This document shows positions 3,985 to 61,947 of a stretch of 64,000 nucleotides of DNA, one piece after another. The position numbers and the translations under genes were made by a program. The DNA is taken from the IMG/VR virus record IMGVR_UViG_3300005836_000011, positions 1-64,000 of that record; one strand, written 5' to 3'. This DNA comes from a virus (Duplodnaviria; Heunggongvirae; Uroviricota; Caudoviricetes). Numbering within the stretch: the first letter of the stretch is position 1; each line of letters opens with the position of its first letter. Below the pieces are notes generated by a model, which saw only the letters and a program-made list of their open reading frames with translations, made no database searches and was not told where the DNA came from.

Positions 3985-4026
3985 CAAACGCCCCCGTCCT
4001 GCGCTGCGGGGGCGTTTGTGCTTTCT
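3985..4026 (+). terminator. rho-independent terminator-like hairpin
   Basis: caaacgcccccg / cgggggcgtttg stem with a 10-nt loop, followed by tgctttct. Confidence 0.5.
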
Positions 4027-5737: not shown

Positions 5738-5913
5738 TCAGCCCTTATGACAGATCCCACATCGGAGAAATCCTGGCTGGCCAAGGAGATTGGTTCACGG
5801 CCAAGCTCCTGCGTCTGTGCATGAAGGCGGATTCCAGCAACCTCGAGCGGATTCGTCTTGGCTTCCCCGAGGTCGTCGAAGCCTTCGAAGAGTGGAGATG
5901 GAGGACAGAATGA
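5734..5913 (+). CDS. small hypothetical protein (TTG start)
   Basis: Frame-1 ORF LISPYDRSHIGEILAGQGDWFTAKLLRLCMKADSSNLERIRLGFPEVVEAFEEWRWRTE reads as a real protein. The listed 5790-6059 ORF has a junk-like Arg-rich N-terminus. Confidence 0.3.
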   Translation: MISPYDRSHIGEILAGQGDWFTAKLLRLCMKADSSNLERIRLGFPEVVEAFEEWRWRTE

Positions 5914-6059
5914 TTACCTACTGGCTCACGCTCGCGATCACCGCGGAGGATCTCGCCAAGGCCCTCAAATGCGAGGAGGATGAAATCGAGACGCAGGACT
6001 ACATCGGCGCGATCCGTGATTTTGGGGAGATCGTGAAACTGGAGGAGGTCGAAGAGTGA
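5910..6059 (+). CDS. small acidic hypothetical protein
   Basis: ATG 5910 overlaps the TGA of the previous ORF. MITYWLTLAITAEDLAKALKCEEDEIETQDYIGAIRDFGEIVKLEEVEE. Confidence 0.35.
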   Translation: MITYWLTLAITAEDLAKALKCEEDEIETQDYIGAIRDFGEIVKLEEVEE

Positions 6060-6277
6060 AGTGCAAGAATCCACAACAGCGTTTCCTGAACAAGATGCGG
6101 AGACGCAGATGTGCGTGCGGTTTTCCGTTAAGGGCGTGGGATATGTCTAGAGAAGAGGTAGAGAAGATTCATTTCGGTGGAACCACAGAGTACATCGGAG
6201 GATCGTGGCGTGTCACGTGTGAATGCATCAATGGCCACGTCTGGTCCGAATCATATCCCGAAGATGCCGCCGCCTAA
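6056..6277 (+). CDS. small Cys-rich (Zn-finger-like) protein
   Basis: ORF track; GTG start overlaps the previous stop. Has CACG...CECINGH. Confidence 0.4.
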   Translation: MKCKNPQQRFLNKMRRRRCACGFPLRAWDMSREEVEKIHFGGTTEYIGGSWRVTCECINGHVWSESYPEDAAA

Positions 6278-6404
6278 GATCTATCGCTGCGCTGCCTGCA
6301 ATCGACCGCTGAAGAAGGATCGCTGGGTATACAGTCCATCCACGCGTGCACACTACTGCTTCCCAGGAGATTGCAAACTCGACAGAAAGAAGAAGAAACA
6401 ATGA
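6264..6404 (+). CDS. small Zn-ribbon protein
   Basis: ATG 6264 (MPPPKIYRCAACNRPL...CFPGDC) follows the end of the previous ORF. The listed ORF 6177-6404 shares this frame; the first 29 codons upstream of the ATG are not counted. Confidence 0.3.
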   Translation: MPPPKIYRCAACNRPLKKDRWVYSPSTRAHYCFPGDCKLDRKKKKQ

Positions 6405-6688
6405 AGATCACGGTCGATGGATCTGTCGTCTATCTCGGAAAATGCGAGACAGGCGTCTACGTGTACGTGGGAGAGCAGTCGCAGGGAGATTCACCGATTC
6501 CCGTGGATGAGACAGAATCCATCCTCAACGGAGTATTGGTCGACTACGCGGAATCTGGCGAAGTCATCGGCGTCGAGATTCTCGTTCCCACCGGAGACTC
6601 ACGCGCTGAATACCCATGCGAATGCTTGGATGGAGGACACAAAACAAGAGATGGAACCTGCATGTGCGGTGGCTTCATCCGTAGGTAG
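6401..6688 (+). CDS. DUF2283-like small protein
   Basis: ATG 6401 after 'agaaagaagaagaaacaATG'. The VDYAESGEVIGVEIL motif is typical of DUF2283. Confidence 0.5.
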   Translation: MKITVDGSVVYLGKCETGVYVYVGEQSQGDSPIPVDETESILNGVLVDYAESGEVIGVEILVPTGDSRAEYPCECLDGGHKTRDGTCMCGGFIRR

Positions 6689-10752: not shown

Positions 10753-12354
10753 ATGCGCGTAGGCAGTCTCTTCTCCGGTTGCATGGGCTTCGATCTGGGT
10801 CTTGAAGCGGCCGGCTTTGAGATCGCATGGGCTTGTGAATCCGATGCGGCCTGCCGTCGAGTAATCGCACGACATCGTCCTGACCTTCCCGTATACGAAG
10901 ATGTACGTATGTTCTCCGAAGGCGAGAGCATTAAAGAGGTTCCCTATGTTGATGTAATCGCCGGAGGATTTCCATGCCAGGATCTATCGCAAGCAGGCTC
11001 AGGGGCAGGTCTCGCAGGTGAGCGCTCGGGACTCTGGTTTTCCATGCGAGATGCCATTCGCGCGCTTCAACCCGGATACGTCCTCATCGAAAACGTCCCC
11101 GGACTTGCAACCAAGATGGGTTCCCGCCCAGGAGAATCTGCTCTCGGAACAGTCATCGCTGGTCTGGCCGAAGCAGGGTATGTGGGATCTTGGATTCGCC
11201 TACGAGCTTCCGAAGTCGGCGCCCCCCACAAACGAGAGCGAATCTTCCTTCTTGCAGCTAGAGCCGACATTGACTCCGCGCGAACTGACTCCAGAGACAG
11301 CTTGGGCAGCCGGTCTGTTCGAGGGCGAAGGGTACTTCTGCAATCCAGAACGAAAAAAGCCACGACCTCGGATCATGGCTGGTCTGATCAGTACGGACGA
11401 AGACACGGTGCGCAAGTTCCACAAGATCGTCAGGATGGGGACAGTGGGGGGGCCATTCCCACAACAAGGGATAGGGAAAAAGCCTTATTGGAGATGGAAC
11501 GTATTTGGCCCTGTTGCTGTATCGGACCTGCTGGAGATGCTTTGGCTTGGCCTCGGGGAGCGAAGGCGTGCTACTGCTTCGGTGGTACTCGACCTTGTGA
11601 TTGCTGGCCGTCAGCAACATCCGCTCAAGGGAGACGTTCTCTTGCTGCCAACACCGAATGCATACGAATCGACACCCGCGCAGGATTATGTGGACGAGGT
11701 ACGCAAGAACCTAGACGATCCGCACAAACGCCTGTATCTACCGGGCCGGAAATGGCACGCACAGAGGACGCTATCGAGGATAGCCCCGCTTCTGCCGACA
11801 CCGGGAGCAAACGACTCCACGGGTCCGGAGAACGAGACGAGGAAGAAGCGACAGAAGAAAGGCACGGGGGGACCGGCTCTACGCGATCTGACGCATCTCC
11901 TTCCGACACCGACAGCGGGAGACGCGAACTCGTCGGGGTCGAGGAAGCTTCCGAGTTCGAAAGCGCACGCGGGGACGTCACTGACGGATGCGATCGTGAG
12001 AGAAAAGCTGCTTCCGACACCGACAGTGAACGACGCGAGAAACACCGGAGGCCCATCACAGCACACGAGAAACTCACTTCCGCTGGTCGAGATAGCGAGG
12101 GACGTGAGTGGGGCGTCTATGGACCAGCAATCAAGCGATGGACAGATGCCTTCGGGAGAGAACCCCCAAGACCAACTGATGATCGAGGGAGATTGAACCC
12201 CGCCTTTACGGAATGGATGATGGGATTTCCCGACGGATGGACGGAGGGCGAGAGCAGAACGCAAAGGCTTAAAATGCTTGGTAATGCTGTCGTCGTACAA
12301 GTGGGTGAGGTGGTTGGTCATATGCTCATGGAGGGAGCGATGCGTGGAGAGTGA
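10753..12354 (+). CDS. DNA (cytosine-5)-methyltransferase, Dcm-like, interrupted by a frame-shifted LAGLIDADG-like domain (possible pseudogene or recoded gene)
   Basis: Frame +1 carries motif I (LFSGCMGFDLGL), IV (GFPCQDLSQAG), ENV (LIENVPGL) and VIII (HKRERIFLLAAR), ending at about 11262. Frame +2 (11267-12100) carries a LAGLIDADG-like block and four LLPTP-x-A-x-D TRD repeats. Frame +1 resumes at about 12100 with motifs IX/X (WGVYGPAIKRW...RLNPAFTEWMMGFPDGW, GNAVV). Confidence 0.7.
   Translation: MRVGSLFSGCMGFDLGLEAAGFEIAWACESDAACRRVIARHRPDLPVYEDVRMFSEGESIKEVPYVDVIAGGFPCQDLSQAGSGAGLAGERSGLWFSMRDAIRALQPGYVLIENVPGLATKMGSRPGESALGTVIAGLAEAGYVGSWIRLRASEVGAPHKRERIFLLAARADIDSARTDSRDSLGSRSVRGRRVLLQSRTKKATTSDHGWSDQYGRRHGAQVPQDRQDGDSGGAIPTTRDREKALLEMERIWPCCCIGPAGDALAWPRGAKACYCFGGTRPCDCWPSATSAQGRRSLAANTECIRIDTRAGLCGRGTQEPRRSAQTPVSTGPEMARTEDAIEDSPASADTGSKRLHGSGERDEEEATEERHGGTGSTRSDASPSDTDSGRRELVGVEEASEFESARGDVTDGCDRERKAASDTDSERREKHRRPITAHEKLTSAGRDSEGREWGVYGPAIKRWTDAFGREPPRPTDDRGRLNPAFTEWMMGFPDGWTEGESRTQRLKMLGNAVVVQVGEVVGHMLMEGAMRGE
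11252..11600 (+). mobile_element. LAGLIDADG homing-endonuclease-like domain embedded in the methyltransferase gene, in frame +2
   Basis: TPRELTPETAWAAGLFEGEGYF...DEDTVRKFHKIVRMGTV...YWRWNVFGPVAVSDLLEMLWLGLGERRR is colinear with the free-standing genes at 17226 and 36670 (revcomp). It begins 5 nt after methyltransferase motif VIII, with no ATG (possible TTG at 11270). Confidence 0.6.
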
Positions 12355-12595
12355 ATACGAGATCAGAACCGCTGCCTATGAGGCGGTTGCAAACGGAGAG
12401 GCGGAGGTCGTTGGAGAAGAGGACGGCGAACCCGTGTTCAAGCTCACAGAAGCAGGTCGCACGCGTGCAGAAGAAATCATCGACGCTGCTATTAGACGCT
12501 GGGGTCACGAAGCTCCGGAGCAGCTAGCCAACGCGCTTGGTGTCTCTATCGAGATCGGCGAGGAACTGGTGGCGCTGAGAGAAGGTACAATCTAG
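12344..12595 (+). CDS. hypothetical protein (HTH-like C-terminus)
   Basis: GTG 12344 overlaps the methyltransferase stop. Same frame as ORF track 12278-12595. Confidence 0.4.
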   Translation: MESEYEIRTAAYEAVANGEAEVVGEEDGEPVFKLTEAGRTRAEEIIDAAIRRWGHEAPEQLANALGVSIEIGEELVALREGTI

Positions 12596-12597
12596 TC

Positions 12598-12927
12598 ATG
12601 ACCGCTATGTGTGAGCGTTGCGGTATGGATGCGCCAGCTCCTAATGACGACTGGTGTAAGGATTGCATCTTGGAGGTGGAGATAATCTTGGCCGAAATGG
12701 AGGAACGCCAAGAGCCAGACTTTCGCTGGCGAGCGCTCGGTAATAACGGGAAGTACACGTTCGAGGATCTTGAGATGCGAGTCGCTGAATACGAGGATGA
12801 ATACGGACTACCCTCTGATGCGCTCCTCGAGATGCATCGGGATGACCGCGCTCCCGATGATCTTACGAGCTTCGATCGTCATGTATGGCTAAGCCTCTAT
12901 CGAGAGATGCTGGAGCATAAGCAATGA
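12598..12927 (+). CDS. hypothetical protein with N-terminal Zn-ribbon (CERCG...CKDC)
   Basis: ORF track. Confidence 0.45.
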   Translation: MTAMCERCGMDAPAPNDDWCKDCILEVEIILAEMEERQEPDFRWRALGNNGKYTFEDLEMRVAEYEDEYGLPSDALLEMHRDDRAPDDLTSFDRHVWLSLYREMLEHKQ

Positions 12928-12991
12928 CTAAATTCCTCTTAGGGATTGGCGTCGCGTCCGTCGCCCTTATCAGTACTGGCATCGCGGTGGT

Positions 12992-13231
12992 TTGGCGTGG
13001 CCTTCAGTGGAAAGCGTGACAGAACAGAAATACGAATACGCCTACCATTGGAAAAACACACCAGAGCGCGAGAAGTTGTTTGGCAAGCGCTGTCGTGTAG
13101 TTACGATGGGCGGAGGGTTGCGCACCGTGCTCATCGAGTTCGAGGATGGAAACAGGATGGTCGTCTCACAACGCGCTATCAGGAGGGCAGATGGCGGCCG
13201 GCTCGGAGCAAATAAGCAAGAAATGGATTGA
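12992..13231 (+). CDS. hypothetical protein
   Basis: ORF track (TTG start); RCRVVTMGGGLRTVLIEFEDGNRMVVSQRAIRR reads as a real protein. Confidence 0.4.
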   Translation: MAWPSVESVTEQKYEYAYHWKNTPEREKLFGKRCRVVTMGGGLRTVLIEFEDGNRMVVSQRAIRRADGGRLGANKQEMD

Positions 13232-13421
13232 GGGCGCGGGGCGAATCTGCTGTAAATGCGGAGTCCAGATCACGAACATGGCAAAGCAGGTAGGTGAAGT
13301 GCGCACGCGCTATGGGTCGAAAAAGCATCTCCAACGAGAGATCGTCTGCATGGACTGCATGGCCGCAAGAAGTGCTGCGCTCGTGAAAGAAACACGCGCG
13401 CGCCTGGGACTTCCTCAGTGA
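13190..13421 (+). CDS. Zn-ribbon protein
   Basis: ATG 13190 after 'aggagggcag'. CCKCG...CMDC. Confidence 0.45.
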
Positions 13422-13696
13422 TAGTTCGTGTGCGTTTCATCGGCGGTCCGTTCGATGGACTAGCGCAAGGTTGGAATGTTCAACGCGCGCTTCCCGAGAG
13501 GCTAAGAATGTCTTACCGACTTGCCGATGCTCGGGGCGGCGTACGTATGGAAGTTACCGATCCTTCCGCCTGCGGCGCTCTGCTCTCCCATGAGCGTGAG
13601 TCGGATGAAGTCGTCTACCGCCAGCGTGAACTTGGAGAGTATTACTTCGATCCTATTTCCGATGACTTTGAGGTTATGGCAATTGGCTCAGCCTGA
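13418..13696 (+). CDS. hypothetical protein
   Basis: ORF track; GTGA overlap with the previous gene. Confidence 0.45.
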   Translation: MIVRVRFIGGPFDGLAQGWNVQRALPERLRMSYRLADARGGVRMEVTDPSACGALLSHERESDEVVYRQRELGEYYFDPISDDFEVMAIGSA

Positions 13697-14024
13697 TCCC
13701 AAACCACCACGCGTAGTTCGAAACAGGGAACTTCTGCGCCTCCTACACGGTCGCTGGAGAGAATGCGCTCTCTGCCACACAACCGCCAATCTGTCCCTCC
13801 ATCACATCCACAAACACCCCAGAGATGATGTGAAGGGAAATCTGGTAATGCTCTGCGGGGACGGCGTCCAGGGCTGTCACGGACTCATAGAGAGCAACGA
13901 CGCGCCCACTGTGAGGCGCCTGATGCAATACATCATGGATTCGCGCCCCGACACTATGGCATACCTCATGGTGAGATTCGGTCCGGTATCTGCAACGGAC
14001 TGGATCAGGCGCCAAATGTCCTGA
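13686..14024 (+). CDS. HNH endonuclease
   Basis: C-terminal part of ORF 13521-14024: CALCHTTANLSLHHIHKHPRDDVKGNLVMLCGDGVQGCHGLIE. The N-terminal 55 aa of the listed ORF are low-complexity. TTG near 13686 is the likely start. Confidence 0.6.
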   Translation, partial: AQPDPKPPRVVRNRELLRLLHGRWRECALCHTTANLSLHHIHKHPRDDVKGNLVMLCGDGVQGCHGLIESNDAPTVRRLMQYIMDSRPDTMAYLMVRFGPVSATDWIRRQMS

Positions 14025-14055
14025 GTGCACCCTAGGCTTTCAGTAGAGCTATGTC

Positions 14056-14274
14056 ATGGCCGTAAAACCTAAGAAGCCTGAGAAGGCCGTAAAGGAGTTC
14101 GATGAGTTCGAGCGCTTGACGCGCTGGCGCTTCCAGGCCCTTCTTCGAATCGGCCTCGCTCCCGATCAGGCGGTGACTCTTATCGAAACGGCCGACGTTG
14201 TCCACGCTGCGCAGGACCTCGCTGACCGGGGATGCCCTCCGGCGATCATCGCCTCGATTTTGCAGGGAGATTAG
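14056..14274 (+). CDS. hypothetical protein
   Basis: ORF track. Confidence 0.45.
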   Translation: MAVKPKKPEKAVKEFDEFERLTRWRFQALLRIGLAPDQAVTLIETADVVHAAQDLADRGCPPAIIASILQGD

Positions 14275-14313
14275 TCCTCGTGTCCGCTTGTAGCTAGTAG
14301 TATTCTTGCCATC

Positions 14314-14679
14314 TTGGAATACGACAGACGTCTTTGCAAGTGCCATGATCTCCCTATGTACAAGAATGGAGTCTCACCCACCGGGCGGCAAAGATACCGA
14401 TGCTCCGTTCAAGAGGTAATTAGGTGGGCGGAGCGTTACCGATCAGATTCGATATGGCGAGAGAAAGTTCGTTCCCGTAGGGAAAAAAACAGGCAGGCGA
14501 GACGCGCCGATGGGTTTTGTGCCGATTGCGGTAACAAGAGACTTTCCGACTGGTATTGCTGGGAGTGTCTCAATAGAAGAGACTTCGGCAAGATCGACAA
14601 GGAGGCACTTAAGTGGCAAGACTCTCAGACCACACTCTCCGAGATGCCCAACACGCTGCTCGTTCAGCTATCCGGGTAG
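14314..14679 (+). CDS. double Zn-ribbon protein (InsA/IS1-type transposase-like zinc ribbon)
   Basis: CKCHDLPMYKNGVSPTGRQRYRCSV resembles the C..C...KNG...G.QRY.C ribbon of IS-family transposases. Second ribbon CADCGN...CWEC. No transposase catalytic domain is present. Confidence 0.4.
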   Translation: MEYDRRLCKCHDLPMYKNGVSPTGRQRYRCSVQEVIRWAERYRSDSIWREKVRSRREKNRQARRADGFCADCGNKRLSDWYCWECLNRRDFGKIDKEALKWQDSQTTLSEMPNTLLVQLSG

Positions 14680-14702
14680 AGGTATCTCGCTACATAAGGA
14701 GG

Positions 14703-14864
14703 ATGGATGAGCTGGCGTTCGCTCACATCAAGTCCTGCATCGAGCGAGGAGAAGCCGTCGACGGAACCGAGCTCGGGCGAGAAGCTGGCACCCTTGCCAT
14801 TTCTACCTACATCGCCCCCGGTGAGCCACACGCGGCTATCGACGCTCCCGGAAATTCCTCCTGA
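14703..14864 (+). CDS. small hypothetical protein (53 aa)
   Basis: ATG 14703 with a strong RBS AAGGAGG. MDELAFAHIKSCIERGEAVDG... Confidence 0.4.
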   Translation: MDELAFAHIKSCIERGEAVDGTELGREAGTLAISTYIAPGEPHAAIDAPGNSS

Positions 14865-15423
14865 ATCAGTTACTAAGATCCTAGACTGGGACTGCGAAAC
14901 AATTGCTGCTGGTTTCGCTGATCCAGATTGGGTTCCCCAGAAGATCACCTGTGTAGCTTGGTCTTGGATTGGCTCTGATCAGATAGAAGCTCGTATCTCC
15001 ACATCTGAAGGATTGTTCTCCCAGCCCAGGAAGCGCTATGAGATGCTCGAGCCACTCCTACAAGCCATCGACGAAGCCGATATGGTAACCGGACACAATC
15101 TCCTTCGCTTCGACCTGCCGGTGCTTAATTCAGAATGCCTTCGACTAGGGTTTCCTTCCCTAAGAGGGATTCTCGTCCAAGACACAATGCGACTGGTTAG
15201 AACGAAAGGATTCAAGAAGGGTCAGGACAACATTGCATCTCTAGTCAAAGTGCCGATCAACAAGCTTTCATTGTCCTGGCAGCAATGGCAGGATGCTTAC
15301 GAGGAGCCGGGTTGGGAGACGGTGATTGAACGTTGCAAGAGTGATATAGCGAGTCACAAACTCATGCGCCAGGAAATGTTGGAACGCGGGTGGCTGAAAT
15401 CTCCGATCAAATGGAATCCATGA
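14821..15423 (+). CDS. DEDD-family 3'-5' exonuclease (DnaQ/RNase T-like)
   Basis: Exo I ILDWDCETIAAG, Exo II MVTGHNLLRFDLPVL, and His-containing Exo III near SDIASHKLM. The N-terminal 55 aa of listed ORF 14707-15423 are Ser/Pro low-complexity. GTG 14821 is proposed as the start. Confidence 0.65.
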   Translation: MSHTRLSTLPEIPPESVTKILDWDCETIAAGFADPDWVPQKITCVAWSWIGSDQIEARISTSEGLFSQPRKRYEMLEPLLQAIDEADMVTGHNLLRFDLPVLNSECLRLGFPSLRGILVQDTMRLVRTKGFKKGQDNIASLVKVPINKLSLSWQQWQDAYEEPGWETVIERCKSDIASHKLMRQEMLERGWLKSPIKWNP

Positions 15424-15716
15424 ACGAGATCGACCACGTCATCTTGGACGCCAAGCTCAAGCGCCATGAGGAGTGGACACCTAAGGCCGTCGAGATGATG
15501 ATTGCTTGGCTGCACGAGCACCCTGATGAACTTATCGCCATGGCTCGTGGCCGGCATGTGTGGGGGCACTTCAGATTCGGTGACCGTAATTACGCAGAGT
15601 ACGATCAGGATCGTCTGATCGCAGAAGCCGCTGAGGAACTCGCTGACTGCGTGAACTACTTGGCTCTCTACTTGCGCCGTCAGGAAGAAGCAAGGACTAG
15701 AGGAGATCTGCTCTAG
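15419..15716 (+). CDS. hypothetical protein
   Basis: ATG 15419 overlaps the exonuclease TGA (ATGA). ORF track 15390-15716. Confidence 0.45.
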
Positions 15717-15724
15717 GTTCCTAG
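15713..15724 (+). promoter_or_regulatory. CTAGGTTCCTAG 12-mer copy
   Basis: Exact copy overlapping the stop codon of the 15419 gene. Confidence 0.5.
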
Positions 15725-15776
15725 CGCTTTGGTTAGACCGAAGTTTTCTGTAGGCTTTCAATACTTACCTACAGCC

Positions 15777-15800
15777 AGGAAGGGGCTTTTGGTCCCCTTC
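15777..15800 (+). other. GC-rich hairpin (ggaagggg / ccccttcc)
   Basis: 8-bp stem with an 8-nt loop. No T tail on either strand. Confidence 0.3.
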
Positions 15801-15870
15801 CGTCCGAGCGTCGACAGGTTCGGCGCAGAGCGAGTAAGGAGGAACGCGTATCCGAGTTGGCATACTCGTT

Positions 15871-16542
15871 TTGTTTGCAATCGCAGTAGTAGTAGTATCT
15901 ATCGCAGTGACCAATTTCACGACAGCTTCGGGCGCGGCGTCCACATCATCGACGAGTGGCCTGCCAAGCGTCGCGCCCGTACATTCGGAGCGGGCGACGG
16001 TTCGTAAGCTCGCAAGGGCCACGACGGGTACCCGCGTGCGAACGGCCCGCTCCGGTTCATGTAAGAGCGCCCGCAAGGGCCTCACCTACTACCTACGCCA
16101 GGAAGCTCTCTGGCGCTACAAGATGGGGGCAGGAGTGTCCCGTGCGACGCGGGTATCGCCAGGAGAGGCGAGCACCTGCCCCCGTATTCGCTATCTCGCG
16201 AAGAAGTGGAAGGGCAAAGCAGCATCAGCGAGGGTTCGTTACCAACGCTGGCATGACTATCACTGGGCCTGGTCGAAGTGGCTTCCTGGTGAATGGCGAG
16301 CACGCTCTCGCTGTGAACTTGGGTATGACCTTCAGCCACGTTCGTGGCGTTCCAACGTTTTCACCAGAAATGGGAACTTCCAGGGCTTCGTAAACTTCTA
16401 CAACGGCACTTGGGATTCTTACCGTCAGTCGGGATTCCCGTCCGAGGCGTACCTCGCTACTCCGCGCCAGCAATACGTAGTTGCTGTCGCGGTCGCAAAT
16501 GACGTCGGTCTTGGTGCATGGCAGAGTTGTGCCTCACCGTAA
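15871..16542 (+). CDS. secreted or membrane-anchored Trp-rich protein (moron-like)
   Basis: N-terminal hydrophobic MFAIAVVVVSIAVTNF, then a basic, Trp-rich domain. Flanked by 12-mer copies, with its own downstream terminator. Confidence 0.5.
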   Translation: MFAIAVVVVSIAVTNFTTASGAASTSSTSGLPSVAPVHSERATVRKLARATTGTRVRTARSGSCKSARKGLTYYLRQEALWRYKMGAGVSRATRVSPGEASTCPRIRYLAKKWKGKAASARVRYQRWHDYHWAWSKWLPGEWRARSRCELGYDLQPRSWRSNVFTRNGNFQGFVNFYNGTWDSYRQSGFPSEAYLATPRQQYVVAVAVANDVGLGAWQSCASP

Positions 16543-16583
16543 TCCACTAGGTCAGCACCGCGGGTTGAAGCCCCGCGCACCAT

Positions 16584-16730
16584 ATGAGTAAGCACGACCG
16601 AGCACGGCAAGAGAAGGACCAACGTAATGCGCTCTACGCGGAAAAGTACCGCCAGCGCAAATGCCATCAATGCGGACACAAGAGTAGTCGCCGTGGAAAG
16701 TGCATTTTGTGCGGCGGAGAAATGAGGTGA
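16584..16730 (+). CDS. small Zn-ribbon protein (48 aa)
   Basis: ATG 16584. CHQCGH...CILCGG. Below the ORF-track cutoff. Confidence 0.35.
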   Translation: MSKHDRARQEKDQRNALYAEKYRQRKCHQCGHKSSRRGKCILCGGEMR

Positions 16731-16779
16731 TTGCCTCTGAAGCCTTACAAGTCTGACTTGCAAAAGGCATTAGAGTGAC

Positions 16780-16822
16780 AAAGCGGGGAGAGCCAACATC
16801 GGCTTTCCCCGCTTTTTGTCGT
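16780..16822 (+). terminator. rho-independent terminator
   Basis: aaagcggggagagcc, loop aacatc, ggctttccccgcttt, then ttgtc. Confidence 0.6.
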
Positions 16823-16823
16823 T

Positions 16824-16835
16824 CTAGGTTCCTAG
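16824..16835 (+). promoter_or_regulatory. CTAGGTTCCTAG 12-mer copy
   Basis: Exact copy directly after the terminator. Its second CTAG supplies the stop of minus-strand gene 16832-17191. Confidence 0.5.
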
Positions 16836-17191
16836 ATCGCTCCGCCGTTCAGCTTGTCCTTCGTACCTGCGAACTGGTAGACGAAGCCAGTGGCGACAAT
16901 GGCAGTTGCAAGAGCTGTCAGCTGTTCAGCTCGACTGACCGTGTTGTCATCAAGCGCAATGACGAGTGAGCCGATGCCAGCACTCAGGAACGCCATGATT
17001 GCTTTGATCGTAGGAGCAGCTGGTCCATTCTCCGACAACCACACCATGCCACCCGAGCCGAGCACAACGCCTGCGGCAATGAGCCAACTCTGGGTGGAGA
17101 TATCGCCGAAATCAGTCGCCCCGGTACCGAGCGCTACAACGAGCGCGCCAAGCGCCGAAACAACAACGGCCAAGATCGCTTTTGGATACAC
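16832..17191 (-). CDS. holin-like multi-TM membrane protein
   Basis: GTG start with RBS AAGGAGG (reverse complement of 17198-17204); three or four hydrophobic helices. Lies downstream of the lysin genes on the minus strand. Confidence 0.5.
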   Translation of the reverse strand: MYPKAILAVVVSALGALVVALGTGATDFGDISTQSWLIAAGVVLGSGGMVWLSENGPAAPTIKAIMAFLSAGIGSLVIALDDNTVSRAEQLTALATAIVATGFVYQFAGTKDKLNGGAI

Positions 17192-17225
17192 TACAAAACC
17201 TCCTTGCTATAGGGTGTGATGGACA

Positions 17226-17615
17226 ATGATACATCAGACCGATAGAGAATTACTAGCATGGGCAGCTGGTCTGTTTGAAGGCGAGGGGCATATTAAGCAT
17301 CGCCGTTATAATAGAAGCAGCCGACCGGGTGAAACTGCAATGCAGCGTGGCCTGACGCTCACAATGGCTGACGAGGATGTCGTGCGACGCTTCCATGAAA
17401 TTGTTGGTGTTGGGAGCGTTAATTTCTCTAAACGTGCGAGGCCACACTGGAGTGACCAATGGAGATGGGACTGTACAAGCTGGCCAGATGTAAGAACTCT
17501 TCTCCATCAATTTCTACCCTACCTTGGTAAGCGAAGAACTCTTAAGGCTCAGGAATTGTTGGCTGACCCAGCTCGCACATATACTAAGCGCAAAGTTACA
17601 ACGCGCGAAAGATGA
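17226..17615 (+). CDS. LAGLIDADG-family homing endonuclease (single-motif type), free-standing
   Basis: RELLAWAAGLFEGEGHI matches a LAGLIDADG motif. Plus-strand gene sits between minus-strand lysis genes. Confidence 0.7.
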   Translation: MIHQTDRELLAWAAGLFEGEGHIKHRRYNRSSRPGETAMQRGLTLTMADEDVVRRFHEIVGVGSVNFSKRARPHWSDQWRWDCTSWPDVRTLLHQFLPYLGKRRTLKAQELLADPARTYTKRKVTTRER

Positions 17616-17681
17616 GGATCACGAGTAGGATCACCAGCAGCAAGCCGATGATCCCACCCCCGATCAAGACATCTGCGATCA

Positions 17682-17921
17682 TTAGGAAACCGAAACCGTC
17701 CCAGAGTCGATGACCGTACCGTCCGCGGCGCGAATCTCGATAACCGAGTCGCCTGCGAAATCAGCCGGATAGAACAGGCCGGCTTCGCCGCTATTGGCTT
17801 GCGGGGCCTTGTTATGCACGTCGCCATCTTCGCCCGTGGCGTAGACGGTGATCTCTGAAGAGTCAGCTCCATCCCAGAGGATCGAGACGCCCTTGCGTAG
17901 AGAGTTAAGTCGAACTGCCAT
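17682..17921 (-). CDS. hypothetical protein
   Basis: ATG 17921 with RBS AAGGAG (reverse complement of 17928-17933). In ORF track 17682-17951. Confidence 0.4.
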   Translation of the reverse strand: MAVRLNSLRKGVSILWDGADSSEITVYATGEDGDVHNKAPQANSGEAGLFYPADFAGDSVIEIRAADGTVIDSGTVSVS

Positions 17922-18028
17922 GTGATTCTCCTTGTTAGCTTTCAACTCCATTGTAGTTGGACGTGGTGTGAGCTGGATTTATTCCTAAATGAATAGCCGA
18001 TCTTGCGCCTATCCTCTCGCCCCTAGAG

Positions 18029-18409
18029 GTGATGTCCACATTACGGAAACTAGAGACGGAGAAGAACCGCTCGAGAGTCATGAGGAAATCGGCAACTCGG
18101 CCGAGGGAAAATATCACTCTCCGAGAGCTAGAGATCATCGCGCTGATCGCGCTCGGCTACTCCAACTTGGAGATCGGGGTAATCCTCTACATCTCCCACG
18201 AGACAGTCAAAACGCATGTCCGACATGGACTTGCAAAGATGAGGGCGCGGACGAGAGCAGAACTCGTCTACCGCGCAATAACGGACGGGTGGCTCGCAAC
18301 GCCCTCACAGGAACCGACGAAGATCCCTTCCCAAAACTCCACCCAGATGTACGTAGAAGAGTGGAACGGTATACCGGAACAACTCTTGAGAAATCTTATG
18401 AAGGACTGA
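18029..18409 (+). CDS. LuxR/GerE-family HTH transcriptional regulator
   Basis: LTLRELEIIALIALGYSNLEIGVILYISHETVKTHVRHGLAKM matches a GerE-type HTH. Confidence 0.7.
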   Translation: MMSTLRKLETEKNRSRVMRKSATRPRENITLRELEIIALIALGYSNLEIGVILYISHETVKTHVRHGLAKMRARTRAELVYRAITDGWLATPSQEPTKIPSQNSTQMYVEEWNGIPEQLLRNLMKD

Positions 18410-18508
18410 CCGAGATGCTTCTGCGCGGTTTGCGAGCAGTTTGGAGAGAGGAAGCTCGAGCGGACAGGCCTGCCCTTCCTGCCCGCTCACACCGAAAGCG
18501 GGGGTTCT

Positions 18509-19228
18509 CTAAGGGGCGGTAGTAGTTAACGGCTGCGTCTGTGCGGTGATCGGACCTGGAGCGCTCGGAGGCGTCTTGTCACTTGCTCCTGCCAACGGTG
18601 GCGGACTGGCGGTGGGAATCGCCATTGGCCCATTGCCGAGCGCGCAGGCATAGGTCTGCACAGCAGCGAACAACGCCGCCCCGAACTGCGTCTTCATATC
18701 CTGGACGAGACCGGTCCCGTTGCCGCACAACGGAGTTGCCATGTGCCCGGATACGCAGACCTTAAGCGGTGGCCCAGTCGGATTGGCGGGGTCGGTGATG
18801 CTACCCATAACGCACATGCGCGCAAGTTCGCCAGGGTTCGCCTTCGCCCAGTTCTTATACAGCGTGGCATTGACGAGCGAATCCCAGAAGGAATAACGGA
18901 TCATGCCTGCGGCTGCATCACAGGGATCAGCCTTCGGTGGAGTGACCACGGAGCACTTTCCGAGATACTGCGTGTCAGCGTCATACGTTCCGGTATATGT
19001 CTGGATATTTAGAGCACGCAAGGCAGGGTTCGTGGTGTCAGGCGCGTAGTAGGTAGTGCCGTTAGCGACGCTTTGTACCGTCATCTGATCCGCCTGGAAA
19101 CCAGCTGCGGATGTGCTGTAGGTTGTGCTGGAGGAGTACGGATTTCCATTCAGCCAAATCGCTCCTCCAAGGCCGACCGCAAAGAGCACGACAGCTCCGA
19201 TAACGATGTATGCGGTTTTGCGTGTCAT
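18509..19228 (-). CDS. membrane-anchored extracytoplasmic Cys-containing protein (lysis-associated?)
   Basis: N-terminal TM YIVIGAVVLFAVGLGGAIW and a Pro-rich C-terminus. Adjacent to the endolysin genes. Confidence 0.5.
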   Translation of the reverse strand: MTRKTAYIVIGAVVLFAVGLGGAIWLNGNPYSSSTTYSTSAAGFQADQMTVQSVANGTTYYAPDTTNPALRALNIQTYTGTYDADTQYLGKCSVVTPPKADPCDAAAGMIRYSFWDSLVNATLYKNWAKANPGELARMCVMGSITDPANPTGPPLKVCVSGHMATPLCGNGTGLVQDMKTQFGAALFAAVQTYACALGNGPMAIPTASPPPLAGASDKTPPSAPGPITAQTQPLTTTAP

Positions 19229-20073
19229 ATCGCTAGCTCCGTAGAGACGATAGCGTCTGCTGGGATAGACGGATCGAGTCCTGGTAGCAGTTTGTCGAAG
19301 TCAGAAACTGTTATCCGGAAGTATCCACCGAGACCCCAGGAACTACCCCATGAATTGACGGCTAGATACGACTCGGTTGGCTCTTCCGGTTGGTGCGCAA
19401 TCAGCACATAGAAATGGCCACCTGCTATTGCTCCAGTGGGTCGCACATATCCAGTGGGACTTGGATTGAACATATCGTTCGTCCAATCGGTCCCGACCAT
19501 AACTGGACCCCGCGTTCGAAGCCAGTCAGTAATCGCATCTGTGCTGTAGGCAAATGCATAGGTCGAGAGTCTCCCGCGCGCTTTAAGCGCCTTGGCGACC
19601 CAGCGTGACTCGACTCCGTCCTCGTTACGTCCCCCCATTCCGATCTTCACCGCTTCGTAGTAGAGGTCGTGGGCATCAGTGGCCGTATAGTGATCATCGA
19701 CAGGAAGGGTGTTCCCCCAATGGCATCCACCAAATCCGCCGCAATGATTGGTGTTCTTTTGATCGAGCAAAGGATCATTCATCGCCCAATTCACGTTCTG
19801 CGGCACTGGAATAGGGGGGCTAAGTAGCGCCCGCGCAGAATCGAAGGCGTTCAATGCCTTCCACCAATGCGTGGTGGTCGGATCAGCGTACTTCGTAGCC
19901 GCCCACTTCTGGAACGTTACGGTGGTTTTCTTTAGCTCAGATACGCCAGCCTCGATCAGGAGACTGGGATCGGTTATCTCGAGCTTGTCCGTAACAAAGT
20001 TGTCCGCGCGGAAGTCGCGGTCATCCGGAGTCGTAGGACGCCGGCCAAGCAGATGTGGACCAATCTCAGCCAT
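19225..20073 (-). CDS. papain-like (C1 family) cysteine peptidase, putative endolysin domain protein
   Basis: NHCGGFGGCHW (catalytic Cys region) and NSWGSSWGLGGYFRI (papain-family C-terminal signature). Confidence 0.65.
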   Translation of the reverse strand: MAEIGPHLLGRRPTTPDDRDFRADNFVTDKLEITDPSLLIEAGVSELKKTTVTFQKWAATKYADPTTTHWWKALNAFDSARALLSPPIPVPQNVNWAMNDPLLDQKNTNHCGGFGGCHWGNTLPVDDHYTATDAHDLYYEAVKIGMGGRNEDGVESRWVAKALKARGRLSTYAFAYSTDAITDWLRTRGPVMVGTDWTNDMFNPSPTGYVRPTGAIAGGHFYVLIAHQPEEPTESYLAVNSWGSSWGLGGYFRITVSDFDKLLPGLDPSIPADAIVSTELAI

Positions 20074-20081
20074 TCTTCTCC

Positions 20082-20804
20082 TTAGTGTATGCCGCTTACA
20101 TGTACGTGGCCTTCATGACCACCATACGTATATGAATGCAGACCTTTTTCCTGGCTCCAGATCGAATTTCCACATATCACATACGAAACCTCCGGGCGCC
20201 CAACCATGCTGTTGAAAAACGCCTTCGCAATCTGATTGTTCATACCTGTCTGAGGAGTGAATCCAACATCAAAAGCGTAGGCTGGGAAATAGGCGTGATC
20301 AGATGGAGCACCGGACGGAAGTTTAGAAGAAGGATTATAAGTTCCTAGATCCGTAAGACCCATATTCCGCGCAAGAGAATAATCACCCCACAGCTCCTTG
20401 ACGAGTGAAGCCCATCCCTGTCTTGGCTCGACGAGAATGGGTGGCGGAGGTACCGGGACTTTGAACAGGAGATATCGGTATTTCCGATATGCGTCCAAGT
20501 AGTTCCAGACCACATCCCAGGTTGGCTGACCGACATTCCCCGTCGCGACCTTGATTGTGGTATTTCCTTTTCCACGTTCAAGCTGCTGCAATGTCTTAAC
20601 GGCCTGAGCTGTTACAGCGTTATAAATCTGATCATGCGGAGGAGGCTTAAAGAAGTTGTCCTCATACTTCCAGAGTCCCCACTTTAGGATCTGCACGTCC
20701 GCTCCCTTGGTTGGGCCACGCGGATCATCCGGACCATACATCTGGCGCTTAAGCTTCATAGGACATATTCTCCTAGGTAATCCACGCCTGGCCAATCCTG
20801 CCAT
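20082..20804 (-). CDS. peptidoglycan hydrolase: PG-binding domain plus M15 (VanY-like) peptidase-like domain
   Basis: GADVQILKWGLW (PG_binding_1-like), SDHAYFPAYAFD (SxHxxGxAxD-like) and GHEGHVHV. The start is more likely MKLKRQ at about 20760. Confidence 0.5.
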   Translation of the reverse strand: MAGLARRGLPRRICPMKLKRQMYGPDDPRGPTKGADVQILKWGLWKYEDNFFKPPPHDQIYNAVTAQAVKTLQQLERGKGNTTIKVATGNVGQPTWDVVWNYLDAYRKYRYLLFKVPVPPPPILVEPRQGWASLVKELWGDYSLARNMGLTDLGTYNPSSKLPSGAPSDHAYFPAYAFDVGFTPQTGMNNQIAKAFFNSMVGRPEVSYVICGNSIWSQEKGLHSYTYGGHEGHVHVSGIH

Positions 20805-39953: not shown

Positions 39954-40385
39954 TCATCCCGTGAAACTCACCACATTGGAGTCGGGGCGCGTGTAGTCGC
40001 CCGCCCCGCTCGGCTGGTAGACCCATGCTGAGCAGGCGACCCCAGGTCGCGCGAGGGCGGTGAGGAACGTCGGCACCGTCTGCCCGAAGTAGGGTGAGAG
40101 TGGGTCGGTGACGATCAAGCTGGTGACCCAGCCCGTGTCGCCCACGGTGGAGAATCCCTCGCAGCGCACGACGACCTGCGCGAGCCACCAGATATTCTGA
40201 CGCCGGTTTGACCGCTGCACCTCGACGGTCACGGTGTCGTAGGGCGAATCCGTCGCCACGCTTGCCACACGAACGGTGAACCCGTTGTCGTTGCCCTTCG
40301 CGGTCGCGCCCGCACTCAGGACGAGCCCCGCTACGAGCACGGCGGCCAGCGACGCAATCCTGCTCATCACTGCCTCCTTAGACAT
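39954..40385 (-). CDS. secreted protein (signal peptide)
   Basis: [23 protein letters not shown] looks like a signal peptide. Confidence 0.45.
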
Positions 40386-43300: not shown

Positions 43301-45180
43301 ACTCCGGTTGCCCCCGTGACCCCCTTATCACCCGAAGCGCCTTCCAGGCCATCGAGTCCTTGCGGGCCGGTTGCTCCACTAATCCCAGTCGCTCCAGTCG
43401 CACCTGATACACCCGTAGCTCCCGTAGCGCCCGAAACACCAGTAGCTCCAGTTGCACCGGATACGCCAGTCGCGCCAGTAGCGCCGCTGACACCTGTTGC
43501 TCCTGTAGCGCCGGAGACCCCGGTAGCGCCCGTGGCTCCTGAAATGCCTGTCGCGCCAGTAGCGCCTGAGATACCTGTCGGCCCCTGCCCTCCATCAATG
43601 CCATCGAGGCCAGCCGGCCCAGTTGCCCCACTGATTCCGGTTGCTCCGGTGTTTCCTCCCCCAGGACCAGTCTGGCCCGTGGGACCCGTGGCACCCGTGG
43701 CGCCTGACCCGGTGGCACCGATGCCTCCGTCAACGCCATCCAGTCCGGCGGGGCCAGTCGCTCCACTAACGCCCGTGGAGCCTGTCGCTCCCGAAACCCC
43801 CGTCGCCCCGGTGGCTCCGGAAATCCCAGTAGCTCCAGTTACACCCTTGTCGCCCGAAGGTCCATCGAGGCCATCGAGTCCTTGAGGACCAGTGGCTCCC
43901 GAAACCCCGGTAGACCCGGTAGCCCCAGAAATCCCTGTGGCTCCAGTGGCTCCGGAAATGCCCGTGGCGCCTGTCGCGCCCGACACTCCGGTCGCACCTG
44001 TTGCACCCGAGACACCTGTGGCACCTGTAGCTCCGGAGACTCCTGATCCGGTCGCGCCCGTCCCTCCAACAGCGCCATCAATTCCGTCAGTCCCCTGTGG
44101 GCCGGTCGCACCGCTTGATCCTGTGGCGCCAGATACACCAGTCGCTCCTGTTGCTCCGGAAACTCCCGTAGCGCCCGTCGCTCCGCTGACACCAGTTGCC
44201 CCAGCACCCGTAGCGCCAGTCGCTCCCGAGCTCCCGGTAGCACCCGAGACACCTGTCGCGCCTGTCGCGCCCGTGACGCCAGCGCCTGTCGGCCCAGTCG
44301 GGCCGTCTGCGCCAGATGCGCCATCGGATCCTGTGGCACCCGTATTGCCCTGCGCTCCCGCCGAGATCGGCGTCAGCACCGACGACGTGTTCACCGAACC
44401 CATGTAGTACGTCGTGAGGTCGGTAGAGCCGCCGCCCGAGTCCTTGACCGCGTAGAGCTTGACTACAAGCAGGTCGTCTACGAGAAGCGCTATTGGAGCC
44501 GCTTGCGAGTACGTCCAGATTGCAGACTGAACCAGCGTGTTATCGATCTCTCCCGAGTCCGACGTAAAGAGCAGCGTCTCGCCACCGCCAGCCGCGCGCT
44601 TGTAGACCTCGGCGCGCAGGTAGACAACGCCGATTGCGCTGTCCACGTCGGCGCTAATCGAGAAGCGCCAGAGGCCGACGGGAATCTCCTCGATGGCCGG
44701 TACGCCAACGATGGTCGAGAACTCCTCGATGAGAACCGGGCTCGTTCCGGTCGTGACGCCGGCGATGATCGTGTCCTCGGCATCTGCCGATGGAAACTTC
44801 CGCGCCTGTCCATACCCGCCTATCGTCGGGTGAGCCGTCGTCCATAGCCAGAATCTCGCCCCAGCCTCACCTGCTGGCCCAGTCGGACCGGTTGCGCCCG
44901 TCGCGCCAGTGACTCCGTCCGTTCCGATCGTGCCGGAAGGGCCAGTAGCGCCAGTCGCACCCGAAGGGCCACCAGCAGGGCCCGTGGCGCCCGTTGCTCC
45001 AGTCTGTCCTGCGCCCGATCCTCCGGCAGGAGGATCAACGTACTCGTGAATCCAGCCACCAGGGAAGCCAGGCTCGCCCAGTACCGCCGGGCGGGTCTGG
45101 AGCATCTTCTGGTCGCCGATGGCCGAGTCATCGACGTCAAGAAGCCTGCGAAGGAAACGTATTACGCGAACAGCGGCCAT
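40378..45180 (-). CDS. giant collagen-like triple-helix repeat protein (1600 aa), putative virion fibre
   Basis: About 1150 residues of uninterrupted Gly-X-Y ([13 protein letters not shown]..., punctuated by [19 protein letters not shown]). N-terminal 250-aa and C-terminal 230-aa non-collagen domains. Confidence 0.85.
40880..44350. repeat. nested tandem repeats (9/27-nt and about 300-nt units) encoding the Gly-X-Y region
   Basis: Repeats are visible at both nucleotide and protein level. The antisense strand carries spurious Pro/Ala/Val ORFs. Confidence 0.8.
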
Positions 45181-48742: not shown

Positions 48743-48754
48743 CTAGGAACCTAG
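48743..48754 (+). promoter_or_regulatory. CTAGGAACCTAG 12-mer copy
   Basis: Exact copy 125 bp upstream of the capsid start. Overlaps the stop of the 48751 gene. Confidence 0.5.
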
Positions 48755-61780: not shown

Positions 61781-61947
61781 TTCTCCTTCAGCGCATCTTC
61801 CATAGCGGCCATCGCATTTCCGAGATCGTTGGAGATCGCTTCTGGCTCGGATGACTTCACCGCATCTATGAGTTCCTGGGCGAGACGCTCTAGTTTCAGT
61901 ACGCGCATACGCGCTCTACGTAGACGTAAATAGTCAAAGGTTTTCAC
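61775..61947 (-). CDS. small hypothetical protein (GTG start)
   Basis: VKTFDYLRLRRARMRVLKLERLAQELIDAVKSSEPEAISNDLGNAMAAMEDALKEKS. Stop overlaps the next ATG. Confidence 0.3.

Follow-up and report, generated by a model that had tools for sequence, protein, structure and literature searches.

A stand-alone Rpf-like enzyme gene with a probable non-AUG start at the meeting point of two phage gene arms

What kind of unit lies between two neighboring copies of a short repeat in the genome of an actinobacterial phage? The question arises from the first 64,000 nucleotides (nt) of IMG/VR virus record IMGVR_UViG_3300005836_000011, the whole stretch of DNA analyzed here, which we call the window. A gene for a Trp-rich protein with a hydrophobic N-terminus and a gene for a small zinc-ribbon protein stand there between two exact copies of the 12-mer CTAGGTTCCTAG, at 15713 to 15724 and 16824 to 16835. 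The initial annotation, which had correctly located both repeats and both open reading frames (ORFs; 15871 to 16542 and 16584 to 16730, the latter with a CxxC-N9-CxxC signature), read the locus as a moron, i.e., a self-contained transcription unit at the early/late boundary that is bracketed by the repeats and serves superinfection exclusion or another host interaction. Our analysis favors a different answer, to which we assign a probability of roughly 60%: the two genes would form a conserved accessory module for wall remodeling at the 3' end of the early arm, throttled in its output and placed in a variable slot, and not a recent insertion bounded by repeats.

The larger gene encodes a predicted exported lytic transglycosylase of the Rpf type

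The larger gene (15850 to 16542, plus strand, counted from the start proposed below) ends in a domain related to the resuscitation-promoting factors (Rpf) of Actinobacteria (approximately 16291 to 16539). The C-terminal ~80 residues of its product matched PF06737 with 35.5 bits against a cut-off of 27 bits (E = 1.6e-8), and the same model was matched by 19 of the 35 members of the enzyme family. The family profile, in turn, matched RpfC, RpfB, and RpfE (E ~ 1e-7), with C-E-L-G aligned to the catalytic C-E-S-G motif and the terminal Cys aligned too. In the window, this motif is C148-E149-L-G (numbered from TTG 15871), which stands opposite the C-E-S-G of RpfC, and its Glu is invariant in our family alignment A1. 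Also invariant in A1 are C148 and C220, which align to the Cys pair that forms a disulfide in Rpfs. C-E-x-G and two Cys pairs are conserved across the 35 family members; in alignment A6, the first Cys is nearly invariant, and most full-length members also have the second.

The predicted fold agrees with this assignment. A Foldseek comparison of the AlphaFold model with RpfB (4emn) and RpfE (4cge) returned a probability of 1.00, template modeling (TM) scores of 0.76 to 0.79 normalized to the target, and root mean square deviations of 2.3 to 2.5 Å over ~80 residues, and the predicted local distance difference test score was 73 to 90 over most of the domain. By PF06737, Rpf profile, and modeled fold, the C-terminal domain is an Rpf-type peptidoglycan lytic transglycosylase, its activity being predicted. 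The homology and structure comparison of the secreted protein therefore leads to an Rpf-type domain, and superinfection exclusion, the function first put forward, does not hold up.

Export of the enzyme is suggested by its N-terminus (approximately 15850 to 15939). Following an M/I-R start, an 18-residue hydrophobic stretch rich in V, I, L, and F leads into an A/G/S-rich segment, and a linker rich in Ser, Thr, and Ala comes next. The Kyte-Doolittle mean over 19 residues reaches 2.99, and an export signal is present family-wide. We predict a signal peptide here, or more probably a signal anchor. The description of the product as a secreted or membrane-anchored, Trp-rich protein thus stands, given the hydrophobic N-terminus and the 10 Trp in 230 residues; its start is more likely ATC 15850 than 15871.

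Between linker and catalytic domain, the enzyme has a helical hairpin with two conserved Cys (approximately 16060 to 16299). The two helices carry the motifs C..AR.A..FY..R...W and CP.RYLA..W..KA.AAR..Y.RW..YH..W..WLP.KW. No Pfam model covers this region and, used as the sole query, it returned only ~28 cluster representatives out of 1.84 billion proteins. In the enzyme family, no fewer than four different lysozyme-like catalytic variants are found attached to the hairpin; the subtype found in the window is marked by the insertion LGYDLQPRSWRSNVFT.

Members of the family were found on 19 phage contigs of IMG/VR. Among 185,579 representative bacterial genomes, the family is all but missing, the search having returned only two tiny contigs of metagenome-assembled genomes (MAGs). 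The exact enzyme protein is not in the protein database, in which the best match is 64% identical, because the gene caller skipped the gene, calling an antisense ORF instead, on public contig L132 (JGI 3300001372), which is 100% identical to positions 11893 to 19458 of the window.

Translation most likely starts at a conserved AUC or AUU codon

Syntenic relatives of the locus were recovered through two anchors, the conserved membrane protein encoded downstream of the unit and the gene for a 108-amino-acid (aa) protein upstream of it; their contigs are designated by handles such as L127. The frame of the enzyme gene opens at 15838. Its first canonical start codon, TTG 15871, gives an ORF of 223 aa but lies 28 nt from the Shine-Dalgarno (SD) sequence and has none of its own, and the equivalent codon is CTG in L127 and L138. 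Conversely, the SD sequence AAGGAGGA (15836 to 15843, plus strand) is invariant in all six related leaders and is always followed at a proper distance by an AUH codon and an Arg codon. In the window, 6 nt separate it from ATC CGA GTT; in L127 and L138, 7 nt precede ATC AGA; and in L135, L134, and L140, 6 nt precede ATT CGA (start regions at 7227 in L127, 2808 in L135, and 3425 in L134). From ATC 15850, the reading frame is intact over 230 codons.

The same arrangement extends beyond the close relatives. In ~13 IMG/VR homologues of the wider family, an SD sequence and ATC-Arg or CTG-Arg stand before the hydrophobic segment. The homologue of L104 (5992 to 6600) has not a single ATG, GTG, or TTG in 202 codons, and in L108 to L110, the first canonical start appears only at codon 81 (L109 locus, 5893 to 6477). 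Avoidance of canonical start codons seems to be common to the entire phage Rpf-like family.

An orphan SD sequence alone is not diagnostic, as no start codon accompanies 29 of the 54 strong SD-like heptamers of the window. The comparison of leaders nevertheless makes ATC 15850, and not TTG 15871, the most likely coding start. Initiation at AUC or AUU would be weak, and the enzyme is therefore probably scarce. L127 and L138 have an in-frame TTG in the loop of the hairpin, which was considered as a start and rejected, since in the window it is out of frame and blocked by TAA and in L135 it is absent.

The enzyme gene has a structured leader and a weak candidate promoter

The leader spans 133 nt from the upstream stop codon to the proposed ATC. 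The 159-nt stretch from 15717 to 15875 folds better than its shuffled versions (z = -3.1) and contains two hairpins on the plus strand. The first, P2 (15778 to 15801), pairs the arms GGAAGGGG and CCCCUUCC around the 8-nt loop CUUUUGGU. It has 8 G/C-rich pairs and -15.8 kcal/mol, and no U-tract follows; the GC hairpin of the initial annotation is thus real, at a position 1 nt downstream of the 15777 to 15800 given there. P2 is kept in L127, L138, and L135 with three compensatory pair changes and a conserved loop, whose sequence occurs once in the window. The second hairpin, P3 (15809 to 15825), consists of CGUCG, a 7-nt loop, and CGGCG. Its arms are kept in six of six leaders while the loops vary, with one compensatory swap of G-C to C-G in L127 and L138.

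Across the window, L127, L138, and L135, all alignment cells of P2 and P3 are paired (100%), with four double-sided pair changes. The covariation score was reached by 0 of 500 shuffles, and controls slid along the alignment were 52 to 67% paired. In L134 and L140, a different long hairpin occupies the same place in the leader, and a compensatory change distinguishes the two. Other foldings were examined and discarded. A fourth helix enclosing the SD sequence and the start (15828 to 15836 with 15863 to 15871) shifts in position by 1 and 6 nt in L127, and the pairing CCGAGC/GUUCGG of the minimum-free-energy fold is not conserved in L135, so that CGUCG/CGGCG was adopted in its place. At the Rfam gathering score, the window matched no family, including the ydaO riboswitch, and at E ≤ 10, the region from 15600 to 16950 gave only chance matches of hairpin type; on this negative search, ydaO or another riboswitch upstream of the enzyme gene was rejected.

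Reading the sequence, we noted a candidate weak promoter on the plus strand (15729 to 15756), with TTGGTT (15729 to 15734) as -35 element, a 16-nt spacer, and TAGGCT (15751 to 15756) as -10 element. Its counterpart in L127 is TTGGTT-N17-TAAGCT, and TGTAGGCT is conserved in L134, L135, and L140. A scan of 15717 to 15870 found no consensus promoter of the sigma-70 type and did not call TTGGTT-N16-TAGGCT.

A zinc-ribbon gene and a shared terminator complete the unit

Directly 3' of the enzyme gene, an ORF on the plus strand (16584 to 16730) encodes a small basic zinc-ribbon protein of 48 aa. Its homologues in L127 (75% identity), L135 (81%), and L134 (68%) stand at the same place, and because of this conservation directly downstream of the enzyme, we regard the gene as real; its nucleotide alignment is 81% identical. 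The protein had no homologue in the word-indexed protein database and no informative match in Pfam, NCBIfam, or PHROG.

A strong intrinsic terminator (16780 to 16822) follows, with an A-tract before and a T-tract after its stem. On the plus strand, the stem (16780 to 16815) runs into UUUUUG (-32.3 kcal/mol, z = -8.9). The terminator is bidirectional, as the minus strand also folds and is preceded there by an A-tract. The flanks (ACAAAG...CTTTTTGTCGTTCTA) are the same in the window, L127, L135, and L134, and the stems differ; all four fold into perfect hairpins, at -25 to -32 kcal/mol. As the stem sequences are unrelated, aligning the terminators automatically told us nothing, and they were folded one by one. 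The strong terminator attributed to the cassette is real, but it is common to both convergent arms and not private to the two genes. The notion of a self-contained unit is accordingly right in part: the locus comprises two discrete genes, a leader, and a strong terminator, while a consensus promoter is lacking in the interval scanned and the terminator is shared.

The unit is conserved within its clade in a slot that is variable over longer distances

Five close relatives (L127, L138, L135, L134, and L140) share one order: the 108-aa gene, the motif or an HNH gene, the leader, AAGGAGGA, AT[CT] and an Arg codon, the export signal, and the enzyme. In L127 and L138, the 108-aa gene is followed by TCTAGGAACCTAGA, the leader, and the enzyme gene; in L127, the zinc-ribbon gene, the terminator, and the convergent membrane gene come next. 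In L135, the leader stands behind an HNH-like gene, and the enzyme that it precedes is short, Rpf-like, and devoid of the hairpin; zinc-ribbon gene, terminator, CTAGGATCCTAG, and the convergent membrane gene come after. L134 and L140 likewise have an HNH-like gene and the leader, and their enzyme joins signal and hairpin to another lysozyme-like domain (SCSSGEGG...GWMQMF); in L134, zinc-ribbon gene, terminator, TCTAGGAACCTAGA, and the convergent membrane gene complete the series. The contigs of L138 and L140 end inside the enzyme gene.

The catalytic domain thus varies among relatives while leader and N-terminus stay constant. L127 (6610 to 7227) and L138 (976 to 1516) illustrate this most clearly: their leaders and N-termini are near-identical, yet L138 has the catalytic subtype of the window and L127 has a GDGW-CPGP type. 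This pattern points to a recombination breakpoint within the gene, close to where the helical hairpin ends.

The unit is present in all close relatives whose contigs reach the slot. Farther away, the content changes. In the more distant L139, the same flanks enclose an unrelated secreted HExxH protein, and no enzyme gene was found in the 170 nt remaining on the L137 contig. In L099, also more distant, the rightward arm ends in an Rpf-like gene that converges on the same membrane gene, without a zinc-ribbon gene and without the motif. Past the membrane gene, L120 to L122 carry a convergent gene for an 890-aa protein and L123 to L126 carry small genes on the same strand. The G+C content is 0.587 for the enzyme gene, 0.537 for the zinc-ribbon gene, and 0.553 for the arm, i.e., the composition is native. 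The slot is variable over long distances, as is the case for morons, and the unit is conserved whole within the clade.

The 12-mer is a genome-wide junction palindrome

The two flanking repeats belong to a dispersed family. The extended form of CTAGGTTCCTAG is a 6-2-6 palindrome, TCTAGG-WW-CCTAGA, and CTAGGTTCCTAG is the top repeated non-coding 12-mer in the window. Eight exact copies start at 491, 4025, 9056, 15713, 16824, 29417, 48743, and 58095, besides three to four near copies (2359, 20875, 63334, and 14873). Allowing two mismatches, we counted 25 sites, against 2.9 expected, a number that 0 of 100 shuffles reached. Seven of the eight exact copies lie at gene junctions, and the remaining one, at 58095, is inside the terminase gene. 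Several overlap stop codons (15716 and, on the minus strand, 16832 and 48751; a stop at 2370 is likewise overlapped by the near copy at 2359), and others directly precede an SD sequence or a start (4025, 9056, and 29417, the last of which abuts the start codon of the tape-measure gene). The copies at 4025 and 16824 directly follow terminators, and 124 nt separate that at 48743 from the capsid gene downstream. A degenerate copy inside the exonuclease gene (14873) has an exact counterpart, CTAGGATCCTAG, at the same place in L135 (position 1372).

The first flanking copy (15712 to 15725 in its extended form) and the second, TCTAGGTTCCTAGA (16823 to 16836), which overlaps the stop codon of the minus-strand membrane gene, are both strandless. 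Orientations are mixed within each arm, and the center can flip at one locus: L127 and L138 keep the first copy as TCTAGGAACCTAGA. This copy is absent in L134, L135, L137, and L140, which have an HNH-like gene in its place. The HNH-like gene encodes ~100 aa (3005 to 3307 in L134, 2386 to 2703 in L135, 1830 to 2141 in L137, and after 1228 in L140). At the second position, L134 has TCTAGGAACCTAGA, L135 has CTAGGATCCTAG, and L127 has the degenerate CTACTTACTTAT; L138 ends before it. Wherever a relative could be read across both positions, just one of the flanking copies was present. Distant enzyme homologues lack the motif.

The claim that the 12-mers bracket a cassette fails on these data. With 8 to 11 sites in 64 kb, some pair falls within 1.1 kb in 65 to 88% of random placements, so the bracketing is not above chance. 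The palindromes are genome-wide punctuation of gene junctions and not cassette borders. Two other roles were tried and rejected. A part as -35 element or promoter partner at all copies does not fit 4025, 9056, and 29417, where the next SD sequence or start follows immediately, and a part as insertion scar or recombination border is countered by the genome-wide copies, the chance spacing, and the fact that none of the relatives read across the two positions has both copies.

The palindromes may be sites for a dimeric DNA-binding protein. GerE/LuxR-family proteins often bind inverted repeats as dimers. A stand-alone helix-turn-helix protein of the GerE/LuxR type (126 aa, E = 5e-13) is encoded at 18029 to 18409 on the plus strand, opposite to its neighbors, and in view of the habit of its family, it is a candidate binder; the zinc-ribbon protein is another. 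Separately, a perfect CTAGGTACCTAG was seen inside the enzyme coding sequence of L134 (3660 to 3671), where it encodes the conserved A-R-Y-L-A of the helical hairpin.

Two gene arms converge at the unit

Rightward genes from ~0.5 to 16.7 kb, including those for a DNA methyltransferase, an exonuclease subunit, and HNH endonucleases, make up the replication or early arm. Leftward genes from ~59 kb comprise the large terminase, portal, capsid, tape measure, and minor tail proteins, two lysis proteins, and a membrane protein whose gene ends at 16832. This early arm and the leftward terminase-tail-lysis arm converge at the enzyme/zinc-ribbon unit, which supplies the final two genes of the early arm. 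The site had rightly been placed at the early/late boundary.

GenBank phages were searched by megablast with 14 to 20 kb and by tblastn with the enzyme, and neither search returned a match. Identity of the capsid protein to its counterparts in Actinomycetia, Gordonia, Arthrobacter, and Microbacterium phages does not exceed 35%; the phage therefore has no close cultured relative. A scan of IMG/VR for exact 14-mers gave 97 single matches, all compatible with chance, and revealed no relative, and a search of IMG/VR with the exonuclease flank found nothing. Within the 64-kb window, no integrase was found and no lysogeny module or repressor was recognized, the sole lysogeny-like trace being a below-threshold Arc-like match. 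Expression in lysogens and superinfection exclusion are thus unsupported.

On the upstream side, the unit is flanked by the 108-aa gene of the early arm (15390 to 15716, plus strand), which is without an assigned function; its TAG stop (15714 to 15716) lies inside the first motif copy. It has 12 homologues at 57 to 100% identity and served as the anchor for L127, L134, L135, L137, L138, and L140. On the downstream side, the last gene of the late arm (16832 to 17191, minus strand) encodes a multi-pass membrane protein of 119 aa, in which a Kyte-Doolittle scan showed two strongly hydrophobic segments and probably more. It is 72 to 82% identical in 12 metagenomic loci and 68% in L099 and had no family match in Pfam, NCBIfam, or PHROG; we call it holin-like by position only. 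The lysis cassette contains one protein with a papain-like peptidase domain (19225 to 20073), whose neighbor (20082 to 20804) is similar to an M23/PG_binding_1 protein of L134; neither of the two showed a glycosidase domain. A second lysozyme-like protein, with an SLT_3 match (E = 1e-12), is encoded past the terminase end of the late arm (61944 to 62423, minus strand). With the papain-like, M23-related, and Rpf-like proteins, it brings the wall-hydrolase candidates of the phage to four.

Additional features were seen in passing. A LAGLIDADG/HNH-type endonuclease gene (17226 to 17615, plus strand; G+C at third codon positions, 0.41) lies between the membrane-protein gene and an 89-aa gene. L124, L128, and L129 are without it, and the 89-aa gene adjoins the membrane gene there; at this junction, it is the endonuclease gene, rather than the Rpf cassette, that looks like a recent mobile insertion. 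A 1,600-aa ORF of short G+C-rich repeats (40378 to 45180, minus strand) lies between the tape-measure and capsid genes, in a region of 61 to 67% G+C versus ~55% for the rest of the genome, and a smaller collagen-repeat protein is encoded at 2395 to 2967.

A model for the unit and the alternatives to it

In our model, initiation at AUC or AUU after AAGGAGGA would keep the output of the enzyme low. Exported through Sec, it would stay on or close to the outer surface of the infected cell's membrane, its catalytic domain facing outward, and would cut glycan strands of that cell's own wall. The wall would thereby be kept or put in a loosened, growth-like state during replication. Moreover, the enzyme could supply the glycan cleavage that is missing from the two peptidase-type proteins of the lysis cassette and so potentiate both. 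As background to the model, phage infection is known to benefit from Rpf activity (PMC1796659; PMC10986025; PMC12908700, a meeting report). The palindromes might serve as protein-binding sites of the operator or "stoperator" type, and the copy at 15713 may regulate the weak promoter of the unit.

Several points weigh against this model. Start codon, export, and enzymatic activity are all predictions made from sequence, and the leader structure rests on just three to four independent lineages. The scan did not pick up the promoter, which is weak, and the unit may be no more than the end of the early operon. Elsewhere in the wider family, the gene stands beside helicase, methyltransferase, integrase, portal, or terminase genes and not beside lysis genes, which weakens the lysis-partner part of the model. 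Finally, the SLT_3 gene could be the glycosidase of the lysis system.

Could lysis itself be the main job? The enzyme would then be a glycosidase endolysin of the holin-independent, Sec-exported type (with a signal peptide or a signal-anchor-release [SAR] domain) that acts with the holin-like and peptidase-type proteins. It has the predicted export signal, its gene adjoins and converges with holin-like and lysis genes in the window, L127, L134, L135, and L099, and the lysis cassette shows only peptidase-type or peptidase-related proteins. Its catalytic domains are shuffled as in actinophage lysins, and PF06737 is found as the central domain of some Lysin A proteins (PMC3314691). However, the gene is on the early arm and on the opposite strand, convergent with the holin-like gene, and hence is not co-transcribed with it. 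The conserved weak start argues for a very low dosage, the N-terminus, with its mean of 2.99, is strongly hydrophobic, unlike the weakly hydrophobic SAR domains, and a cell-wall-binding domain is absent. Together with the non-lysis neighbors of the family elsewhere and the separate SLT_3 gene, these observations make the endolysin an improbable explanation, if one to keep in mind.

Another explanation takes the Rpf likeness at face value: trace amounts of the enzyme would generate muropeptide signals or wall turnover and so activate a slow or dormant actinobacterial host for replication. The Rpf of Micrococcus luteus acts at very low concentrations, which the very low expression expected here would fit, and the early-arm position, the fold, and the catalytic residues are those that such a factor should have. 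The Rpf motif of the TM4 tape measure aids the infection of cells in stationary phase (PMC1796659), rpf genes of the host are upregulated during Rhodococcus phage infection (PMC10986025), and Rpf-deficient mycobacteria support some phages less well (PMC12908700, a meeting report). Against it, the Rpf domain is replaced in close relatives by a differently built lysozyme-like domain (L134 and L140) or a short variant (L135), so that what is conserved looks like a need for glycan cleavage in general. The strong hydrophobicity of the N-terminus points to a protein tethered to the cell that makes it and not to a diffusible factor, and the scan of representative genomes, which yielded the two MAG contigs alone, gave no pointer to a host. 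We consider a wake-up role unlikely.

A more speculative variant, for which we see little probability, makes the unit a phage device for the wall and growth state of the host, with its output set by the host's translational state. The AUC/AUU start behind the structured leader would be disfavored at high initiation fidelity (initiation factor 3 [IF3]) and relieved in slow-growing or dormant cells, and a membrane-tethered Rpf-type enzyme would be made precisely when the host needs waking. The helical hairpin could target or gate the enzyme, and the zinc-ribbon protein or a palindrome-binding factor could close the regulatory loop.

The moron in its classical sense, a recently acquired and independently transcribed cassette bounded by the 12-mers, expressed from the prophage and conferring exclusion or another host-interaction phenotype, is also quite doubtful. 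The discrete unit with leader and terminator would suit it, as would the slot content, which varies in the distant L139 and L137; in addition, the gene is found at many genome positions in the wider family, once directly beside an integrase (L102), and in Cluster O mycobacteriophages, a gene between copies of a direct repeat is a documented indel (PMC4351075). But the 12-mer occupies at least eight junctions genome-wide, with close pairs expected by chance and both flanking copies in no relative read through the two positions. The composition is native, the terminator serves both arms, and every close relative that reaches the slot keeps the whole unit, so the comparison of presence and absence supports variability only at a distance. 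In the 64 kb, neither an integrase nor a recognizable repressor turned up, the product is a predicted peptidoglycan hydrolase, and the family, being essentially absent from the representative bacterial genomes, is not seen in prophages. As a label, moron fits this locus in part.

That the larger ORF is a decaying, non-functional remnant without a proper start has almost no probability: although its sole canonical start lacks an SD sequence and the gene caller passed it over on L132, the frame is intact, ~35 homologues retain the catalytic Glu and four Cys, lineages with many synonymous differences still share the SD sequence, the AUH codon, and the signal peptide, and the structure prediction is confident over the folded part.

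Significance and comparison with known systems

If our model of a throttled wall-remodeling module is confirmed, the unit would offer a tractable case of a virus that doses a potentially self-destructive wall hydrolase through the choice of start codon, and it would explain why automated annotation missed the gene. Rpf-type enzymes control the exit from dormancy and wall turnover in Actinobacteria, and the locus would make it possible to test directly if infecting phages manipulate the wall growth or the dormancy of their hosts. The 12-mer, as a genome-wide junction palindrome, has a binding factor worth finding.

The enzyme resembles RpfA to RpfE of Mycobacterium tuberculosis and the Rpf of M. 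luteus in the lysozyme-like fold, the C-E-x-G Glu, the Cys pair, and the N-terminal export signal. It differs in being encoded by a phage, in a family virtually absent from representative bacterial genomes, and in having the extra helical-hairpin domain with two Cys, the insertion LGYDLQPRSWRSNVFT, and a presumed non-AUG start. The ydaO (c-di-AMP) riboswitch precedes bacterial rpfA genes, whereas none stands before the enzyme gene here.

Among phages, the Lysin A of Cluster A mycobacteriophages and the TM4 tape measure bring the same catalytic domain family to bear on actinobacterial peptidoglycan (PMC3314691, PMC1796659). In those proteins, the domain is part of a cytoplasmic multi-domain endolysin or of a virion protein; here it is stand-alone, predicted to be exported, located on the early arm, and equipped with its own leader and a zinc-ribbon partner.

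The closest described analogue of the 12-mer is the 17-bp palindrome of Cluster O phages (TGTTCGG-N3-CCGAACA), which shares the invariant arms, the T/A-rich center, and the lack of an orientation bias relative to transcription, and whose function is likewise without assignment (PMC4351075). Cluster O palindromes, Cluster A stoperators, and Cluster K start-associated sequences all resemble the 12-mer in being many short sites, mostly at gene boundaries. The 12-mer differs from these dispersed actinophage repeats in its sequence, its 6-2-6 geometry, and its smaller number of copies (8 exact in 64 kb), and it often includes a stop codon or directly precedes an SD sequence, with two copies following terminators. 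Stoperators are asymmetric and oriented, and copies of the 12-mer are neither.

A moron of the HK97/HK022 type consists of a promoter, a gene, and a terminator inserted between conserved genes. Our unit is like such lambdoid morons in being a discrete unit with a terminator in a variable slot at an arm junction. Unlike them, it has a typical composition, a terminator that serves both arms, and a promoter that is only a candidate; it is conserved in its clade, and no integrase was found in the window.

The closest parallel for the start is infC, the gene for IF3, in which an AUU start makes expression low and sensitive to IF3. Both cases have a conserved AUH codon at a proper distance from a strong SD sequence; for the phage gene, initiation at AUC or AUU is proposed from sequence comparison.

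Set against these systems, what was already known is the presence of PF06737 in phage Lysin A and tape measure proteins (PMC3314691, PMC1796659). New are the stand-alone, predicted exported architecture with an undescribed helical hairpin and a lysozyme-like catalytic domain that differs between relatives, the conserved and presumably non-AUG start with its structured leader, and the fixed partnership with a zinc-ribbon gene.

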